Assembly (NCBI GenBank): GCA_000146465.1
Contig: CP001943.1
DNA length: 64,000 nt
Reading direction: 5' to 3' (one strand)
The position numbers and the translations under genes were made by a program. Under the pieces are notes generated by a model that was not told the origin of the DNA, searched no databases, and saw nothing but the letters and a program-made list of their open reading frames with translations. This document shows, piece after piece, positions 1,994 to 58,868 of this stretch (position 1 is the stretch's first letter; the number at the start of each line of letters is the position of its first letter).

Positions 1994-4504
1994 ATGGAAG
2001 TGAAATTATGCGAAGATGCTTGGAAAGTTCTAAGTGCAATAAAGCAGACAATTGTTTCGGAAAGAATGAAAGATACGCCAGAGAACGTTACGGAGGCAGC
2101 GATTGAGACGTTTCTGGAGATGAGCCGAAGAAATGATCATTCGAAAGTGGAAGAGCTTCTTCAGATAATCCTGGCACATAAGAACTACATCACCGAGAAA
2201 AGTAGCACAGAGCTTGTGAGAAGAATTCTTCTCTCCTTTAAGGAGAAGAAGGTTTATCTCCAAGGACTCCGGGTAATCAAGCATTTTGTGAAAAGCGGGA
2301 GATATCACATGTCGCACTTCAAGATTCTTGTCGAAGACTGTTTTGGCCGGAAGTCACTAAAAACAAGGTCTGTGGAACTTGCAAAGAGATATCTGGAACT
2401 TGAGGAGTTTAGAAAGGAACTTCTAGGGTATATATCGAAGCTCGAAGGAACCGACTTGATAAGACACATCAACTGTTTCTTCGACTCTATTGCAGATGGA
2501 ATTGATGTTGTAGAGAAACTTGACTCATTTGTGAATCCGGATGTTTTTGAGGGGATGGAGACCGGCGAGGCAAGGGCACTGTACTCTGAATGCTGTGATA
2601 TGCTCTACAAATATACGTTGATGGAGATGGAGGTTGGAATTCCGGATGAAAAGGTTTTTGAATACATAGTGAAGAAGCTTCAGATCCTGTTTGAAATTCC
2701 TTTTCCCAGGGGAGGAAAGCTCTTGGAAACTCTTTCATTACTTGCAGAAAAGGACTTGGTTGTTTCTTTAAGGAGCAAGCAGCATTTGATGAGATGGGAT
2801 AAGAATCTGAAGAGAGAGGTTGTGAAAGAGCTCTGTGAGTCGAATTTGAAGAATGACAAAATATACGAGTTTATAAGATCTGTAAGGCACGTCCTTGTTC
2901 CCGAGTTCATGGATCTAATAAGACACATGGCAAGGAACTTTGTGGAAGGAGATGATAAATATCGATTTGCCCTTGGGGCAGTAGCAGGAATTATAGGAAT
3001 CGAGGATCTATTTCTGGTACTAGAAGACATGGAAATAGAGATTAGGACATGGGCACCAATTATCCGATGTTCTTCAAATGGAGACATATCGTTTTTCATA
3101 AAGATTCTCCGGGATGTGGAGGAAAGAAAAGGTGTGGAATCTATCGACAGAACGATTCTCTTGAACTGTATTCCTGCATTCTGCAACTATGCAACTGATC
3201 GTACGGGTTCAATTGAAGGTCTCCTACAAATCATGAAAGCCAACCTAGGGAATTCAAACGTTTTTAATTCGATATGCACAGGACTAAGGAAGTTGATGCA
3301 TTCCCACGAGAACAACATCAAGAACAACTTGATTCTTCGAAACCCGATTCCTCCTGGGGAGTCGGAGAGAATCCTCCACTCAATCAGGAAATCCGAGATT
3401 GCTTTGGACATTCTTTCTGTAGGAATTGGGAAGTGCTCTGATGAGCTGGATCAGACATTGTTCAAGCTACTGGAAACCGATGATTTTGGACTATCGAGCA
3501 GGATATTCCAGTATATCCTACTCTACCCTCAGATTGAGTCTGTTACAGTCGGAAAGTGGAATCTATCGGGGATTTCGGATGTAATGAAGGTTGCAAGGTA
3601 CTTTGTTCCAAAGATGAACAGCGATTTCGAGATTTATAGCAAGCTCATGGAGTTCTGTCTTTCTGAGGACGGGGGAGCACAGAAAAGAGCATATCAGCTT
3701 CTGTATCACATGAAGAAGCATCAAAAGATTGATCTGTGCATCTGCGACACTTTATTTTCCCACGAAACCGATGAGAAGACAAAGGACTGCTCCCAGAAAT
3801 GGAGGATTGCTCTTATTTATTCTGTTTATACAGTCGGATGCAAATGCTTTTCCGAGCGGAAGAAAGAATATCTCAACAGGATGCTTCCAGTGCTTGTGCT
3901 AGGTCTGAAGACAGGAAATGCTAAGGCCCGAAAGGTTTGTCAGGAAAATTTGGATGAACTTGTATCTGGGTTTTCATCTTCCGAATTTGATTTCTATTGT
4001 AGGCTAATGGTTGCAGGAACAGCATCGGAAAATGTAGTTCTCAGATGCGGAATACTGGAAGCCTCTGTTGCACTAATAGAGAGCCACAGAGAAAGACTTT
4101 CCCAAGAATTCATCCAGTCGATGTACGATGGCTGCCTCTCGACAAGTAGACTAGGAAGGGAAACTGTTCCCCATGTTCTCAAATTCTTAAATATCCTTGT
4201 TAGCACCTATGCAGTGAACCCTCAGGGATGTCTGGAAGTTTTAGAGCTATATGCAGACAAATTCAAAAGAAGATATGCAGAAGACGTCAAGTCGATTGTA
4301 TCAAGACTGATTAGAAGAGATGTGGAGATCCCCAAGAGTCTCCGCCTTTTCTTGAAGGAAAGAAAAAGAAAAGGTCCTCGGGCAACCTTACAGATAACGA
4401 AGAAAAACAACGTGATGATCACACAAGGAAAACAGAAACAGGAGAGCATTCCGTTTTCGGGCCACAGAAGAACCGTCAAGCGGAACAAGAGACACAAGAA
4501 ATAA
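1994..4504 (+). CDS. Large alpha-helical (HEAT/ARM-like) protein with a lysine/arginine-rich C-terminal tail; possibly RRP12-like nucleolar pre-ribosome export factor
   Basis: 837-aa ORF. The track start is GTG at 1958, and the first ATG (MEVKLCEDAW) is at 1994, preceded by ggCCCaaaaaaattgctGGGG. Repetitive helical segments and a 'QKRAYQLL' segment recall RRP12; that resemblance is from memory, with no alignment. The basic tail is KERKRKGPRATL...KRNKRHKK. Confidence 0.3.
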   Translation: MEVKLCEDAWKVLSAIKQTIVSERMKDTPENVTEAAIETFLEMSRRNDHSKVEELLQIILAHKNYITEKSSTELVRRILLSFKEKKVYLQGLRVIKHFVKSGRYHMSHFKILVEDCFGRKSLKTRSVELAKRYLELEEFRKELLGYISKLEGTDLIRHINCFFDSIADGIDVVEKLDSFVNPDVFEGMETGEARALYSECCDMLYKYTLMEMEVGIPDEKVFEYIVKKLQILFEIPFPRGGKLLETLSLLAEKDLVVSLRSKQHLMRWDKNLKREVVKELCESNLKNDKIYEFIRSVRHVLVPEFMDLIRHMARNFVEGDDKYRFALGAVAGIIGIEDLFLVLEDMEIEIRTWAPIIRCSSNGDISFFIKILRDVEERKGVESIDRTILLNCIPAFCNYATDRTGSIEGLLQIMKANLGNSNVFNSICTGLRKLMHSHENNIKNNLILRNPIPPGESERILHSIRKSEIALDILSVGIGKCSDELDQTLFKLLETDDFGLSSRIFQYILLYPQIESVTVGKWNLSGISDVMKVARYFVPKMNSDFEIYSKLMEFCLSEDGGAQKRAYQLLYHMKKHQKIDLCICDTLFSHETDEKTKDCSQKWRIALIYSVYTVGCKCFSERKKEYLNRMLPVLVLGLKTGNAKARKVCQENLDELVSGFSSSEFDFYCRLMVAGTASENVVLRCGILEASVALIESHRERLSQEFIQSMYDGCLSTSRLGRETVPHVLKFLNILVSTYAVNPQGCLEVLELYADKFKRRYAEDVKSIVSRLIRRDVEIPKSLRLFLKERKRKGPRATLQITKKNNVMITQGKQKQESIPFSGHRRTVKRNKRHKK

Positions 4505-17774: not shown

Positions 17775-18153
17775 TTTTAGGAAGTGAGCTGAGTTTCTTT
17801 AAAACAAGTTGACGTCTGTTCACTCACTGATATATTAAATTATTCTTGAATGTCATGTATTGTAATGCATCTTAAATTGCTTGTTTTTACAAAATTTGAA
17901 CTCTAATTAATAACTCTATTGGTCTTAATTTAAAACGAACAGAAGTTAATCATCTCCAGGTCTTAAAAGGCCATATTGGCAATAGGATAGGCTCTTTAGG
18001 CCTGGCTCCCACTGAAACATTCCTCTCTAAAGACATTCTATGCCTCTGTTTTATTAAAATATCCTCTTCTATGCCCCTCAAGTCTTCCGTATTCATAAGC
18101 TGTGCAATAAATGTTGGAAGAAATCTAAAGTGTTCGAAAAACATAGAACAATT

Positions 18154-33537: not shown

Positions 33538-33875
33538 TTGCTGTCTCCTATTTCCACAAATGACGGGGTTGTATTTCCCCCGAGTAACCAAGGATACATA
33601 CAGCTTCAGGTTCTCTGATCTCCTCTGGCCCTTAAAATTACTCGAGGATCGGAGGCAACCCTTTCCACATATGATCTTTTTCTCTTGGCATTCGGATGCA
33701 GATATAGATGTGATTTATCTGAGATTCTTATTCTTACAGCTGTAAACTTCGTTCTGTTTCCTACTAGCATGTATCCCTCACACAAACAGATAGAAACCTT
33801 TCTTGAAAAGAAGATCCCATAATCCAAAATCATTCGCTAGGGTTGGTTGAAAAATTAAAAACACCACATCCAGAG

Positions 33876-35608: not shown

Positions 35609-35926
35609 TTATTTTTCGCTTCCACCGGAGACATGCTCTACCAACGCAGAAACAACGTCTCCTTTGTTTCTCACATCTCTAAGCTTCTTGACCTTCATCT
35701 CAAATTCGGATTTTAGCCTTTCATCAACTACTTTTATGTATTCCTCAACTTCCTTTTCTAGAAGAAGTAACCTACTTTCGTTTTCCTTTCTAAGGTCCTC
35801 AACCATCAATCCTGCATCTCTTCTCGCTTGAGCCCTCATCTCCTCAAGCTCCCTACGTGCCATCTCTAGCTTCTCTTTGGCATCGTTCTCGCACTGGACA
35901 AGTCTTTTAATACTTTCGACAGACAT
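35609..35926 (-). CDS. Small coiled-coil protein, possibly V-type ATPase subunit G
   Basis: 105 aa with N-terminal SIKRLVQCENDAKEKLEMARRELEEMRAQAR, like the V-ATPase G N-terminal helix. ATG preceded by caGGGGt. Confidence 0.3.
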   Translation of the reverse strand: MSVESIKRLVQCENDAKEKLEMARRELEEMRAQARRDAGLMVEDLRKENESRLLLLEKEVEEYIKVVDERLKSEFEMKVKKLRDVRNKGDVVSALVEHVSGGSEK

Positions 35927-43235: not shown

Positions 43236-44690
43236 ATGAAGATGGCAGAGGCTTGCATAGATTTAGCTCCACTGGTAAAATCAGCAGTGAACTTCTTGTA
43301 TCGTCTATCTTTATCCAAAAATATGAAGTCGAGGCATTGCTACAAGAAAATGGCCCAAGAGTTAGAGAAAATAGAAGGACCTCTTTATTCGCTGGACTAC
43401 CTGAAGAACATCAAGTGGGCTGGAGCTAAAACAATTGAAAAGATCCAGGAGTTGATAGACAGAAGAATTCTAGAAGACATAAAAACGGAGGAGGATTTTG
43501 AGAAGTATCTGAATGTTCTCTCACCGAGGGCATATGAAGAAAGCAAAAGAAAGTTATGGAAAGAAGGCACAGAGAAGAGCGATTCCAAGGATAAACAATA
43601 CAAGAAGGAGAAAGACAACATATCCAAGAAGAGAAAATACATTCCTGGATATAGAACAGGAAGTTATGGAATAATGAAAGCACTATGGATAAGAGAAGGG
43701 ATTGGTAGGCATGAGATAGCACGGATAGGAAGAAATTACTGTGACTCAGAGTTTGACTTTGGATCAAGACATTCTGCTTGGTCATCCATGAAAACACTAG
43801 TTAGAAAGGGATTTGTGTATAAAGAGGGAAGATCGAAATTCTACCTTACAGACGAAGGAAGGGAGCTAGCAGCAACAATGTTTGCAAATACATCTGTTGT
43901 TGAGGAGGAAGACGAGATTACACTTCTGGTAGATACTAGGGAAGTAAAGAGTAGGAGATCCAGGCTGTTTTTCCAAGAGTATTTTGAATCTCAACAAATC
44001 AGGCACGAGACAAGAGCTCTTGAGGTAGGGGATTTTCTTTGGGTCAGAGGCGAGAGGGTTTGTAGCTCGATAATCGAAAGGAAAAGAGGAAGCGACCTTG
44101 TAAGTAGCATAGTAGATGGAAGATTTAAAGAGCAAAAGAACAGGCTGAAAAACACAGGAATAAGAAAGATTTTTTATATTGTAGAAGGACTAAAGAACAG
44201 CCATATGCAAAATGTAGGTAAAGAGACTATAGTATCGTGCATGGCGGCAACTAGGCTGGAGGGATTCATTGTCATGGAGACAGAAGACATAGGCCAGACA
44301 GGCTCAGTGATCCGTATGATAGATTACGAAGTGAAAAAGGAACAAGAGAAAAAAAAGAAGACTTCGAACAAATTAGACCATTGCGAAGAATCCAGTGAAT
44401 GTCTAGAAGATCCTGACGAAGAGATGGAGATGAGCTATGAAAGCTTTATTGATAAAAGCACTAAGTCGAAAGGAAAAACTCAGACCTATCTGCTGTACAT
44501 GTCTCTTCTCTCTATTAAAGGAATAGGCCATAAAAAGGCGCTTATACTGGCCGAACGGTATAAGACAATCGGGGGACTAATAAGTAGAGTAAAAGCTGAT
44601 GGAGTAAACAAGCTTTATGACTTTGAAATAAACGGAAAAAAAATATCTAGAAAGAATGGAAATGACATAATAGACTTTTTTCTGAAGTGA
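43236..44690 (+). CDS. MUS81: Crossover-junction endonuclease Mus81 (ERCC4 nuclease)
   Basis: ERCC4 catalytic block VGDFLWVRGERVCSSIIERKRGSDLVSSIVDGRFKEQKNRLKNTGIRKIFYIVEG (ERKRxxDLxxSIxDGRFxEQK signature). Helix-hairpin-helix elements are near both termini. ATG preceded by gatCCCttga. Confidence 0.6.
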   Translation: MKMAEACIDLAPLVKSAVNFLYRLSLSKNMKSRHCYKKMAQELEKIEGPLYSLDYLKNIKWAGAKTIEKIQELIDRRILEDIKTEEDFEKYLNVLSPRAYEESKRKLWKEGTEKSDSKDKQYKKEKDNISKKRKYIPGYRTGSYGIMKALWIREGIGRHEIARIGRNYCDSEFDFGSRHSAWSSMKTLVRKGFVYKEGRSKFYLTDEGRELAATMFANTSVVEEEDEITLLVDTREVKSRRSRLFFQEYFESQQIRHETRALEVGDFLWVRGERVCSSIIERKRGSDLVSSIVDGRFKEQKNRLKNTGIRKIFYIVEGLKNSHMQNVGKETIVSCMAATRLEGFIVMETEDIGQTGSVIRMIDYEVKKEQEKKKKTSNKLDHCEESSECLEDPDEEMEMSYESFIDKSTKSKGKTQTYLLYMSLLSIKGIGHKKALILAERYKTIGGLISRVKADGVNKLYDFEINGKKISRKNGNDIIDFFLK

Positions 44691-44725
44691 CACGGATTGA
44701 TAAGTGGAAATATTTTGCTCCCAGG

Positions 44726-44908
44726 ATGGGAGGGATCAGCGAGAAGTTGAAAGGACTAAAGTTTATGCAAAGAGCGGAGAGAAAAAACAATGGGGATGGA
44801 GAGGTGTCGTTTTCGACGTACTTTTGCAAGAAAGGAATTTTCAGTTACTGCAGCAAGCAAAAGATCCACGATAAGGAAGACGAAGCTCAAAAAAAGGCCA
44901 GGAACTAG
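44726..44908 (+). CDS. Candidate small basic protein (60 aa), unannotated and of uncertain identity
   Basis: ATG (MGGISEKLKGLKFMQRAERKN...) preceded by the same start-site motif, gctCCCagg. It lies in a 296-bp gap that is otherwise unusually long for this window. Confidence 0.3.
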   Translation: MGGISEKLKGLKFMQRAERKNNGDGEVSFSTYFCKKGIFSYCSKQKIHDKEDEAQKKARN

Positions 44909-44986
44909 AGCATTCCCATATCTCTTATTAAATATATGTATCCTATACGTAGGCTTTCTTTCTGGACCCTTTTGTGTTAGTATTAG

Positions 44987-46213
44987 ATGAATGAAGATGG
45001 AGTGAACATAAAAGAACTGATAAACGCCAGATTTCAGAATCCAAAGTTTGTCTACGATGGAAAGAGGATGAGAGTCCTACAGGAAAGGAAGGTAGTTGAC
45101 TATACATCGGGTATTTGTGTTCAAAGAGTGAAAAGGAGAATTGATCCACTACAAGTCAACACGAGCTTTGAACTTTCCTCACAGATTCTTAACCTAAAAT
45201 CCCCAGAGCTATGCTACAATGATTTATCCAGCCTATTTACGACAAAGATCGAGCATGTCAGTGTCAACAAAGTCAAGTGCCCTGTTAACATTGTCAGATG
45301 GACTCCTGATGGAAGAAGACTAATGAGCGGAACAGCTACAGGGGAATTCACATTGTGGAATGGCTATGGATGCAACTTTGAAACTATCCTTCAGGCACAT
45401 GAATCACCTGTTAGAGGGATGGCTTGGTCTCCTTCGGGCTCGTTTTTGATATCCTCGGACAACTTTGGGATAATTAAGTACTGGCATCCATCGATGAACA
45501 ATATACAAATAATACAAGGACATGCAGAGGCAGTAAGAGATCTTTCATTTTCTCACAACGATAGTAAGTTTTGCTCGGCTTCGGACGATTCAACAATAAA
45601 GATTTGGGACTCGATTGAAGCAAAAGAGGAATCAGTCCTTAGAGGTCATAACTGGGATGTAAGAGCAGCACAATGGCACAGATATAAATCGTTGATAGCA
45701 AGTGCAGGGAAGGATAATTTGGTTAAGATGTGGGATCCACGTACTGCAGAGGAGCTATGCACTCTACATCATCATAAGAATACAATACTAGCCTTGAAGT
45801 GGATGGGCGATGAAAACTATCTCCTTACAGGAGGAAAGGACCAGGTGATAAAAATGGTGGACATTAGAACAATGGCTGATGTGTTTACCTACAAGAATCA
45901 CAAAAAGGAAGTTACATCAATAGGAATACATCCTTGTATTCCAGATATGTTTGTAAGCGGAGGTACGGAAGGAGGGATCTACTTTTGGCAAGCATATACT
46001 CAGGTGCCTTTGGAGGTTATCGAAGAGGGCCATGAGGGTACTGTGTGGTCACTAGATTACCATCCTGTGGGACACATCCTAGCATCTGGATCTGTAGATC
46101 AAAGCGTAAGATTTTGGGTTAGACCAAGGCCAGACGAGAATGCTGAATCTACTGTTGGAGGATTTGTTGATGAAGAAAACAATTCTGATGGAGGAGCCAT
46201 TCCAGGACTGTAG
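44987..46213 (+). CDS. PFS2: WD40-repeat polyadenylation factor Pfs2/WDR33-like
   Basis: Seven WD repeats with long collinear identity to Pfs2/WDR33 (VNIVRWTPDGRRLMSGTATGEFTLWNG..FETILQAHESPVRGMAWS...SDDSTIKIWD...LRGHNWDVRAAQWH..SLIASAGKDNLVKMWDPRT). Confidence 0.55.
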   Translation: MNEDGVNIKELINARFQNPKFVYDGKRMRVLQERKVVDYTSGICVQRVKRRIDPLQVNTSFELSSQILNLKSPELCYNDLSSLFTTKIEHVSVNKVKCPVNIVRWTPDGRRLMSGTATGEFTLWNGYGCNFETILQAHESPVRGMAWSPSGSFLISSDNFGIIKYWHPSMNNIQIIQGHAEAVRDLSFSHNDSKFCSASDDSTIKIWDSIEAKEESVLRGHNWDVRAAQWHRYKSLIASAGKDNLVKMWDPRTAEELCTLHHHKNTILALKWMGDENYLLTGGKDQVIKMVDIRTMADVFTYKNHKKEVTSIGIHPCIPDMFVSGGTEGGIYFWQAYTQVPLEVIEEGHEGTVWSLDYHPVGHILASGSVDQSVRFWVRPRPDENAESTVGGFVDEENNSDGGAIPGL

Positions 46214-47721: not shown

Positions 47722-48282
47722 ATGGAAATAAAGACAGGGATGATAAGTGGGGCTCTTTCGTCTTGCTATTTGAAGACTAATAAAACATCAGTTATATGCT
47801 GCATCTATCTAGAGCAAAAAGGAGAGACGGAGCCACAAACCGAGGTACATTTCTCCGAGGGACTACCTCTGCAGATTCGTTCAGGAGTTAGCTCAATCGT
47901 AAAGTCGTTATTTTCAACAAAAACTAGATCTACAAGGATCAAAGTGACATTCCATGCTGTGAGATGTGGAGAGGACTTGTTTTCTTGTCTTGTAAACTCT
48001 TTTTCCGTATGTGCCATACTATCTGGGATTGGGATCATAGATACCATTTGTTCTAGTACTGTATATGCTGACAAGAATAACATTTCGCTTACAAGTCAGT
48101 TGAATTCTTTCCCTCTACACATGGTGTATATGATTCACAAGAAAAGAATCATGCAGGTGCATTTTGATGGGTGCCTTGACTCTTCTCTTTTTGTTAAAGC
48201 CACTGAGAGGCTTGTCCAGACATGTGTTGAGCAGGCCGACATGTTGAGATTAACAATAGAGGAAATTACAAGAACAGGATGA
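47722..48282 (+). CDS. RNase PH-like protein, possibly a non-catalytic exosome subunit (Rrp46/Mtr3-like)
   Basis: About 186 aa with an RNase-PH-like arrangement (TSVICCIYLEQKGE..., SVCAILSGIGIIDTICS..., LVQTCVEQADMLRLTIEE). The track start at 47659 is GTG. The ATG at 47722 is preceded by aagCCCtt. Confidence 0.3.
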   Translation: MEIKTGMISGALSSCYLKTNKTSVICCIYLEQKGETEPQTEVHFSEGLPLQIRSGVSSIVKSLFSTKTRSTRIKVTFHAVRCGEDLFSCLVNSFSVCAILSGIGIIDTICSSTVYADKNNISLTSQLNSFPLHMVYMIHKKRIMQVHFDGCLDSSLFVKATERLVQTCVEQADMLRLTIEEITRTG

Positions 48283-58219: not shown

Positions 58220-58319
58220 TAGGGTTCAAAAGTTTTCACAATGAATAGATATTTATTTTGTTTTTATAATCTAGGATCCACTACAGCCTTAAATAAAATA
58301 TTCATACTTTCTAACACCA

Positions 58320-58490
58320 TTACCTAATCCTTCCAGATAATTCGTTTCTTATTTCTTTAAGAAGTTGAATGAGGTTCTTCGGGCTCATTCCAGAATCCAA
58401 AAGCTTGTACATTTGATCAATTGTATCCTCTCCAAAGTGCAGCTTTAGCTCTTTAGCAAACTCCAATATGTCCTTGTATCCATCTTCCAT
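58320..58490 (-). CDS. MZT1: MOZART1-like gamma-tubulin complex mini-protein (Mzt1)
   Basis: 56-aa product MEDGYKDILEFAKELKLHFGEDTIDQMYKLLDSGMSPKNLIQLLKEIRNE. The ...SGMSPKNLIQLLKEIR block resembles the MZT1 core ...QGINPEALSSVIKELR. The track start at 58523 is TTG. Confidence 0.4.
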   Translation of the reverse strand: MEDGYKDILEFAKELKLHFGEDTIDQMYKLLDSGMSPKNLIQLLKEIRNELSGRIR

Positions 58491-58562
58491 GCCAGACCAG
58501 AGAACAACACCAGGGGGAGACAAATTTTTTGTTCATTTTTGCCGATGGTACGGCAGAATTAC

Positions 58563-58868
58563 TTATTTATTCTGGCGACTAATCTCTGCCATCCTCTCTA
58601 GATGTTCACTAGTCGGGAGGCTTTTAGAGCCTTGAATCTCTCTTCCTCCAAAACTGTAGTCAAAGTCCTTTTCAATAATAAATCGTATATCTCCATTGTC
58701 CACAATATTCTTTCCCTTGTGCTTGCACAGAAGCGCAGATCGATGAATTATATCCGATAAAAACTTCTCTGTTAGGAGCTGAAGGTTCCTTATTACGTCC
58801 TTATCAATCTTTTTGTTACAAAGCTTCAAGAGCTTTTTTGGGCAAAGAAAGTGATGTTCGATGTTCAT
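58563..58868 (-). CDS. TAF12: TFIID subunit TAF12-like histone-fold protein
   Basis: Histone-fold segment LLKLCNKKIDKDVIRNLQLLTEKFLSDIIHRSALLCKHKGKNIVDNGDIRFIIEKDFDYSFGG parallels the TAF12 C-terminus (...VKDVQLHLERQWNMWIPGFG). The track start at 58880 is TTG. The ATG (MNIEHH) at 58868 is preceded by gatCCCCaaa. Confidence 0.45.
   Translation of the reverse strand: MNIEHHFLCPKKLLKLCNKKIDKDVIRNLQLLTEKFLSDIIHRSALLCKHKGKNIVDNGDIRFIIEKDFDYSFGGREIQGSKSLPTSEHLERMAEISRQNK

Follow-up and report, generated by a model that had tools for sequence, protein, structure and literature searches.

A 60-residue microsporidian protein as a putative miniature Mpp6-like adaptor of the nuclear exosome

The spacer that separates a Mus81 gene from a WD40 gene in a 64-kb stretch of Encephalitozoon intestinalis DNA (hereafter, the window) holds a small gene, Eint_021355, whose 60-residue product is probably—judging from sequence comparison—a radically shortened orthologue of Mpp6/MPHOSPH6, that is, a minimal Mpp6-like Mtr4 adaptor of the nuclear exosome. 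In the mechanism proposed here, the N-terminal motif [IL]-S-x-x-L-x-G-L-K-F-M-Q-[KR] (block 1) would dock on the RecA domains of Mtr4, as in human and yeast, and a second conserved block (block 2; SFSTYFC..G-I-F-S-Y) would attach the protein to the exosome cap, with Rrp40 as the probable contact. In this arrangement, Mtr4 would be kept above the channel of the exosome by a peptide of 45–67 residues, in the service of nuclear RNA decay and the 3′ processing of rRNA. We infer, in other words, the Mtr4 binding, the partner of block 2, and the nuclear exosome function.

The gene itself is not new. It was originally predicted as one of the short genes that annotation misses, but its translation is 100% identical to the annotated E. 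intestinalis protein Eint_021355, which GenBank already lists as hypothetical. What the analysis adds is a proposed, testable function for proteins that are called hypothetical everywhere: the database names of the family members are all "hypothetical" or "uncharacterized", and their precomputed Pfam field is empty. The literature searched yielded no functional assignment and no transcript data for ECU02_1395/Eint_021355, and no paper that connects this or any other microsporidian protein with Mpp6.

The small gene, its neighbours and its signals

Read directly from the window, the ORF opens with the ATG at 44726 and closes with a TAG at 44906–44908 (183 nt, 60 codons), and its translation is an exact match to the peptide of the original prediction. 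The product has a mass of 6.9 kDa and is, as had been described, basic and rich in lysine and arginine, with 11 K and three R (14 K+R among 60 residues) and a pI of 9.55.

The flanking genes had been named Mus81 and WDR33, and both are as described. The upstream neighbour (43236–44690) carries an ERCC4 nuclease domain (3.7e-26) plus Mus81-type HhH/WH matches, and the downstream neighbour (44987–46213) encodes a WD40 protein. We take YN57_YEAST to be Pfs2/WDR33. The E. cuniculi orthologue of the WD40 gene, ECU02_1400, is listed as YN57_YEAST-like (supplement of PMC2803860). Under a crude gene model comprising the 42 large ATG-ORFs of the window, which also underlies the CCC statistics below, the 296-bp gap between Mus81 and the WD40 gene is the fifth largest of 41 gaps with a median of 78 nt, in agreement with its earlier description as unusually long. 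Placing the small gene in this gap divides it into two gaps of 35 and 78 nt, which are typical for the window. A 73-residue ORF with a GTG start (44687–44908) extends the 60-residue ORF upstream so far that its start overlaps the final codons of Mus81 (end at 44690); its 13 additional residues lie 5′ of both the conserved methionine and the CCC motif, and this candidate was rejected.

Alignment-based and exhaustive profile searches yielded 21 relatives of Eint_021355, ranging from 45 to 67 residues in length. Closer relatives, including the named orthologues ECU02_1395 (E. cuniculi), KMI_06g11090 (E. hellem), and HK407_02g04300 (Ordospora pajunii), are 57–78% identical to it, and seven further Encephalitozoon/Ordospora-type assemblies hold orthologues of 58–67 residues in the slot between the Mus81 and WD40 genes. 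The order Ste24 protease, Mus81, small ORF, WD40, GDI recurs at every Encephalitozoon/Ordospora-type locus examined, such that the check proposed with the original prediction—a search for a syntenic small ORF beside MUS81 in other microsporidia—gave a positive result in E. cuniculi, E. hellem, Ordospora, and three further assemblies. Among the more distant relatives, of 45–64 residues, are proteins annotated as hypothetical in Vairimorpha ceranae and Hamiltosporidium magnivora. The two distant members whose loci were examined (P0014 and P0015) lie in a different neighbourhood (eIF5/eIF2B, FtsJ, ORF), and the ORF has therefore survived genome rearrangement.

Among seven orthologues, pS is saturated at 0.61–0.92, compared with a pN of 0.06–0.26. 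Out of 58 columns, 17/17/46 are variable at codon positions one, two, and three, and a five-species nucleotide alignment contains indels of 3 or 6 nt only; frame-disrupting differences in orthologous loci, which had been suggested as a point on which the prediction might fail, were thus looked for, and all indels proved to be multiples of three. On the strength of its cross-genus conservation, its synteny, a pN far below pS, and the 17/17/46 periodicity, the small ORF is almost certainly a real protein-coding gene under purifying selection, as was originally proposed. A side observation concerns the orthologue at one locus (L014, 2001–2204), for which the called product of 67 residues begins right after the Mus81 stop; since the start conserved across species corresponds to the internal Met9, the call probably begins too far upstream.

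The sequence immediately 5′ of the ATG at 44726 is gctCCCaggATG, and its CCC had been singled out as a start context common to bona fide genes. The motif is indeed enriched upstream of the window genes: of the 42 large genes, 22 carry CCC in the 15 nt preceding the ATG, as against 7.8% of random 15-mers, and because of this excess over background it is regarded as a real signal. A CCC-like motif is the published microsporidian transcription-start signal (PMC2803860). Among the orthologues, the corresponding motif is CCC in E. cuniculi, E. hellem, and three further loci (L012, L006, and L008), TCC in Ordospora, and GGGG in one other locus (L013).

Upstream of the CCC motif, the string ATATTTT is invariant in the five-species alignment and the surrounding intergenic DNA is variable; A/T-rich signals in the same relative position have been described for E. 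cuniculi genes (PMC2803860). The conserved consensus 5′ of the gene reads AAATATTTTGnTCCCAGrATG, with no conservation of the neighbouring spacer. The element at 44707–44722 (AAATATTTTGnTCCCAG), directly 5′ of the ATG, is kept in four Encephalitozoon species; its persistence against a background of saturated synonymous sites suggests that a core promoter or start-site element is under constraint here. At the other end of the gene, an ATTAAA aligns in all four Encephalitozoon species and the rest of the 3′ sequence is variable; published tables list AATAAA/ATTAAA signals for genes in the E. cuniculi neighbourhood (supplement of PMC2803860). The features of the locus are collected in Table 1.

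Table 1. Features of the small gene and its surroundings, in window coordinates
Feature	Position	Strand	Basis or remark
A/T-rich element GGAAATATTTTG, putative AAATTT-like promoter-proximal signal	44707..44718	+	Conservation; function presumed
CCC-like motif	44720..44722	+	4–6 nt 5′ of the start codon
CDS of the 60-residue protein (Eint_021355), including TAG stop	44726..44908	+	Identity, synteny, pN/pS, and codon periodicity
Block 1, candidate Mtr4-binding motif ISEKLKGLKFMQR, codons 4–16	44735..44773	+	Match to the MPP6 N-terminal motif
Block 2 EVSFSTYFCKKGIFSY, candidate exosome-cap/Rrp40 contact, codons 26–41	44801..44848	+	Conservation; assignment conjectural
Lys-rich variable tail SKQKIHDKEDEAQKKARN, codons 43–60	44852..44905	+	Variation in length and sequence; pLDDT <50
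ATTAAA polyadenylation-like signal	44927..44932	+	19 nt 3′ of the stop

In several respects, the gene resembles the small CDSs (sCDS) that CCC-like motifs and conserved gene order brought to light in Encephalitozoon (Belkorchia et al. 2015, PMC4589312; Peyretaillade et al. 2009, PMC2803860): it does not exceed 300 nt, carries CCC at −6 to −4, is conserved and syntenic, and has relatives in Nosema/Vairimorpha-type genomes. Some sCDS are miniature versions of universal eukaryotic proteins, examples being NOP10-like and Mozart1. Unlike the published sCDS, however, Eint_021355/ECU02_1395 is not among the 32 listed in 2015 (PMC4589312), and it is likewise absent from the 2009 E. cuniculi gene and signal tables (PMC2803860).

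The N-terminal block and MPP6

In the 22-member family alignment (A3), two conserved blocks are separated by a variable basic linker and followed by a variable Lys-rich tail, which is truncated in Vairimorpha-type members. The consensus of block 1 is [ILF]-S-[EK]-[KN]-L-x-[GE]-L-K-F-M-[QK]-x, in which S5, L8, L11, K12, F13, and M14 are invariant in all 22 members and position 4 is I, L, or F. Block 2 (SFSTYFCKKGIFSY) has the consensus E-x-S-F-S-T-[YWF]-F-C-K-K-G-[VI]-F-S-[YF]; the 16 closer members all share S28, F29, T31, F33, and C34, with distant members keeping the hydrophobic/aromatic pattern. An AF2 monomer model, computed with the family alignment as input, has a mean pLDDT of 61 (below 50 in the tail) and contains a low-confidence helix at residues 3–19 and little else. 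A model of such low confidence is as would be expected of a protein that folds on its partners.

The original prediction could place the product in no family. Its N-terminal 20 residues, however, permit a tentative placement next to MPP6. The sole Pfam match of Eint_021355 is to PF10175 (M-phase phosphoprotein 6, MPP6), with E=0.0074 and 17.1 bits, the gathering cut-off of this profile being 29.4 bits. PF10175 is also the only Pfam match that recurs in the family, where it is found in 21 of the 22 members, with E values between 3.1e-4 and 1, the limit of the scan. Its score lies between 13.7 and 20.5 bits in nine of the ten members listed singly, with no match in the tenth (P0010), and none of the family members scored reaches the gathering cut-off. 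The register of the match is constant, with protein residue 3–4 falling on profile position 2–3.

Benchmarks help to put these scores into perspective. Yeast Mpp6 scores 55.1 bits against the same profile and human MPP6 141.2 bits, or 35.9 bits for human residues 1–41 alone (the human and yeast queries are identical to PDB chains 6d6q_L and 6lqs_M6). Human and yeast Mpp6 do not detect one another by phmmer at E≤1, and orthologues of yeast Mpp6 have been detected in only 6 of 344 species (PMC3919561). Mpp6 is known to evolve very fast, and weak scores are thus normal for the MPP6 family, given both the mutual non-detection of the human and yeast proteins and the count of six species in 344.

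Compared by hhalign with vertebrate and yeast MPP6, the A3 alignment matches over 17 columns, MseiSEKLKGLKFMQka falling on KTRLSKNLLRMKFMQRG with P=6.7e-4; as an HMM with filters off, A3 places lSekLkGLKFMqk on LSKNLLRMKFMQR of human MPP6 with P of about 1e-4, the value for yeast being 0.009. The N-terminal Mtr4-binding motif of MPP6 (L-S ... M/L-K-F-M) is thus present in Eint_021355: it reads L9-S-K-N-L-L-R-M-K-F-M-Q-R21 in human MPHOSPH6, L11-S-S-R-V-M-N-M-K-F-M-K in yeast Mpp6, and I4-S-E-K-L-K-G-L-K-F-M-Q-R16 here, such that I4, S5, L8, L11, K12, F13, M14, Q15, and R16 align to human L9, S10, L13, and M16–R21. In human MPP6, alanine substitutions at L9/S10 or at M16/K17/F18/M19 abolish MTR4 binding—but not core binding—and the same substitutions abolish function in RNA decay (PMC9410898). 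Yeast Mpp6 without its conserved N-terminal 22 residues likewise loses Mtr4 recruitment (PMC5553935). The human residues L9, S10, M16, K17, F18, and M19 correspond to I4, S5, L11, K12, F13, and M14, and at the level of sequence the N-terminal motif matches MPP6 residue for residue at the experimentally critical positions. Since block 1 aligns with positions mapped by mutagenesis, it is predicted to bind the RecA domains of microsporidian Mtr4.

A further line of evidence comes from metagenome contigs, which were scanned with the pattern L[KR]GLKFMQ and gave 25 marine loci (L015–L039, GC about 0.46). Twelve of the 25 were translated and proved to be two sequence variants of Thr-rich proteins. 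Their two representatives, 168 and 169 residues long from the first methionine and of the form ...SKFSSKLKGLKFMQRAQEKK...DEHWTYENP...WVFGRRSFGGFN..., are bona fide (algal) MPP6 proteins that score 49.5–50.4 bits over the whole Pfam profile. They begin with SSKLKGLKFMQRAQEKK, which has 15 identities in 22 positions to the E. intestinalis peptide, and they carry the 13-residue string SxKLKGLKFMQRA, as does Eint_021355. Adding the marine sequences to the MPP6 alignment raises the hhalign result to 93.5% probability (P=2.3e-7), a figure that is inflated by the motif-based retrieval, because the algal sequences were retrieved through a pattern taken from the microsporidian family. The independent point that stands is that the exact N-terminal string occurs at the N terminus of a verified MPP6. 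The translated marine loci also have a long poly-threonine insert between the KFMQ and DEHW motifs, and their source is possibly a marine picoeukaryote.

Two broader searches bear on the same question. An exhaustive profile search of 1.84 billion representatives returned nine small microsporidian-type proteins only and no full-length MPP6, and the profiles A1 and A3, when run against PDB sequences, gave spurious antibody framework matches (ATYYC) or nothing, and no MPP6 chain.

The second block and the exosome cap

The core-binding part of Mpp6 spans residues 81–120 in yeast and 40–83 in human, and comprises a hydrophobic strand, an aromatic residue, and an arginine anchor (G-R-x-x-F) that sits in the Rrp40 S1/KH groove (PMC5603729, PMC5553935). 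W44, G73, R74, and F77 of the human protein are invariant across vertebrate, alga, and yeast MPP6 (alignment A6; the yeast tryptophan is W61). When the second half of the family alignment was compared by itself using hhalign, no significant match of block 2 to the MPP6 middle domain was obtained (P about 0.5). The best non-significant local alignments are collinear, falling on human EEQSF and GRMSFRG; that of the anchor region pairs GIFSYCS with GRMSFRG, again at P of about 0.5. Global hhalign, also non-significant, places S28...Y32 on S40...W44 and G37-I-F-S-Y41 on G73-R-M-S-F77.

Within these alignments, Y32 stands opposite W44 at zero confidence in the global comparison, and its column contains Y, H, L, F, I, W, V, or S, with W in 2 of the 22 members. 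The Rrp40 arginine anchor is absent from the family: across all 22 members, the anchor position is I, V, Y, N, or T, with a K or R one or two residues upstream in most and the aromatic F/Y retained. Two of the three motifs that are invariant in vertebrate, alga, and yeast MPP6—W44 and the G-R-x-x-F anchor—are thus not demonstrable in the family, and because P is about 0.5, block 2 is treated as a candidate rather than an assigned Rrp40-binding element. Judged by its sequence, block 2 could represent a cap-binding motif that has been compacted and re-invented, or could bind something else. A more tentative possibility is that Microsporidia have compressed Mpp6 to three parts: the ancestral Mtr4 motif, about 12 linker residues, and a cap motif invented anew, SFST[YW]FC..G[VI]FS[FY], which would do without the otherwise universal arginine anchor.

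Taken as a whole, the product is like Mpp6 in having the motif at the same N-terminal place, with the residues needed for MTR4 binding, and a conserved hydrophobic/aromatic block after it. It is also small, basic, and (from the AF2 model) intrinsically disordered, with a Lys-rich tail; in yeast Mpp6, the C-terminal third likewise carries positive charge and shows little conservation (PMC5603729). Unlike Mpp6, it measures 45–67 residues across the family rather than 160–186, the candidate position of the invariant tryptophan holds Y/F/W/I/V, and the anchor arginine is lacking, with G-I/V-F-S-Y/F in place of G-R-x-S/T-F. The helical region after the anchor is also missing. The linker between the motifs, with which Mtr4 and Rrp40 would have to be bridged, is about 12 residues long compared with 40–90 residues in Mpp6 (about 40 in human), which counts against the Mpp6 reading.

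Neither an Mtr4 nor an Rrp40 gene was found within the 64-kb window. Three genes downstream of the Mpp6-like ORF, the window does encode a 186-residue RNase_PH-domain protein (47722–48282, + strand; 27.9 bits) that is exosome-core-like, and at least one exosome-core-like subunit is therefore encoded in the genome. The RNase_PH gene occurs in the same order in the E. cuniculi and Ordospora loci; its nearness to the Mpp6-like ORF is probably a coincidence.

Alternative readings, significance and further small ORFs

The similarity to MPP6 spans only about 20 residues, and a short linear motif could be convergent. The family might accordingly consist of microsporidia-specific small basic proteins, for example a nucleolar or ribosome-associated peptide or the adaptor of some other complex, whose MPP6 likeness is due to chance or convergence. 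The sub-threshold level of every MPP6 match, the failure of large profile searches to reach a full-length MPP6, the strong conservation of a block 2 that lacks an MPP6 counterpart, and the missing arginine anchor are all in keeping with this explanation. We nevertheless consider it somewhat unlikely: MPP6 is the sole Pfam family matched by 21 of the 22 members, always in the N-terminal register; the matching positions are both the MTR4-binding residues identified by mutagenesis and the invariant columns of the family; a verified MPP6 has the same 13-residue string; and size, disorder, and basic tail fit Mpp6. The protein could, by analogy, also be an Mtr4-binding peptide without core binding, acting as a free regulator or competitor of Mtr4. 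A precedent of sorts is the C-terminal domain of ZCCHC8 in the NEXT complex, which contributes a short MTR4-binding segment and illustrates that short peptides can control this site, the MTR4 surfaces bound by MPP6 and ZCCHC8 being overlapping (PMC9410898, PMC9278407); the ZCCHC8 domain itself, to which no sequence similarity is expected, belongs to a scaffold protein of large size and does not bind the exosome cap. The conserved N-terminal motif, the lack of a detectable arginine anchor, and the lack of a significant match to the Rrp40-binding region would agree with such a regulator, but block 2 is conserved as strongly as block 1 and must therefore bind something, and its non-significant alignments are collinear with the human elements, in the order expected of a compressed core-binding region. 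A free regulator is thus judged improbable.

Least probable of all, to the point of being negligible, is a chance ORF in the spacer—the spacer then serving as a Mus81 3′ UTR, a WD40-gene promoter, or a noncoding RNA—or a cysteine-based metal-binding mini-protein. In favour are the shortness of the ORF, the presence of further ORFs (44–66 residues) in the antisense and +2 frames, and the two cysteines of the product. Conservation across genera and rearranged contexts, three-base substitution periodicity, and the low pN relative to pS speak against a chance ORF, however, and Rfam and tRNA scans of the spacer produced no credible match (the only one, a rimP leader at E=0.43, was dismissed); for practical purposes, the comparative data refute it. 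As for metal binding, the two cysteine pairs of the original prediction amount to two cysteines in all, C34 and C42, whereas a zinc-binding mini-protein would be expected to have three or four conserved Cys/His ligands. C34 is shared by 21 of the 22 members, among them all 16 closer ones, and gives way to Y in the remaining one; C42 is replaced by N, G, S, I, or Q in orthologues. With C42 unconserved and C34 replaced in one member, no metal site is possible, and this candidate was rejected.

Should the Mpp6 assignment be true, Eint_021355 and its relatives would fill a gap in the microsporidian inventory of nuclear exosome and ribosome-biogenesis components; of the ancestral factors for ribosome biogenesis, only about half are reported to survive in Microsporidia (PMC3919561). 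The protein would show how far a two-motif tether can shrink under extreme protein miniaturisation, and would offer a natural minimal peptide for studying the positioning of Mtr4 on the exosome. If block 2 is indeed a re-invented cap motif, no smaller exosome cofactor would be known, and the protein would be a "minimal tether" made by nature. The case would also illustrate how profiles compared at the level of motifs can help to annotate the many "orphan" small CDSs in reduced genomes.

Other parts of the window gave several minor observations. An 836-residue ORF at 1994–4504 (+ strand) has no Pfam match at E≤1e-5, and two of the longest spacers, 17775–18153 (379 nt) and 58220–58860 (641 nt), hold no ATG ORF of at least 30 residues with a CCC/GGG context. 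A 75-residue ORF with CCC upstream (33606–33833, − strand) lies inside a 338-nt gap at 33538–33875. Another small gene is likely at 35609–35926 (− strand), where a 105-residue coiled-coil ORF (MSVESIKRLVQCENDAKEKLEMARRELEEM...) with a GGG-type motif upstream occupies a 500-nt gap between larger genes.
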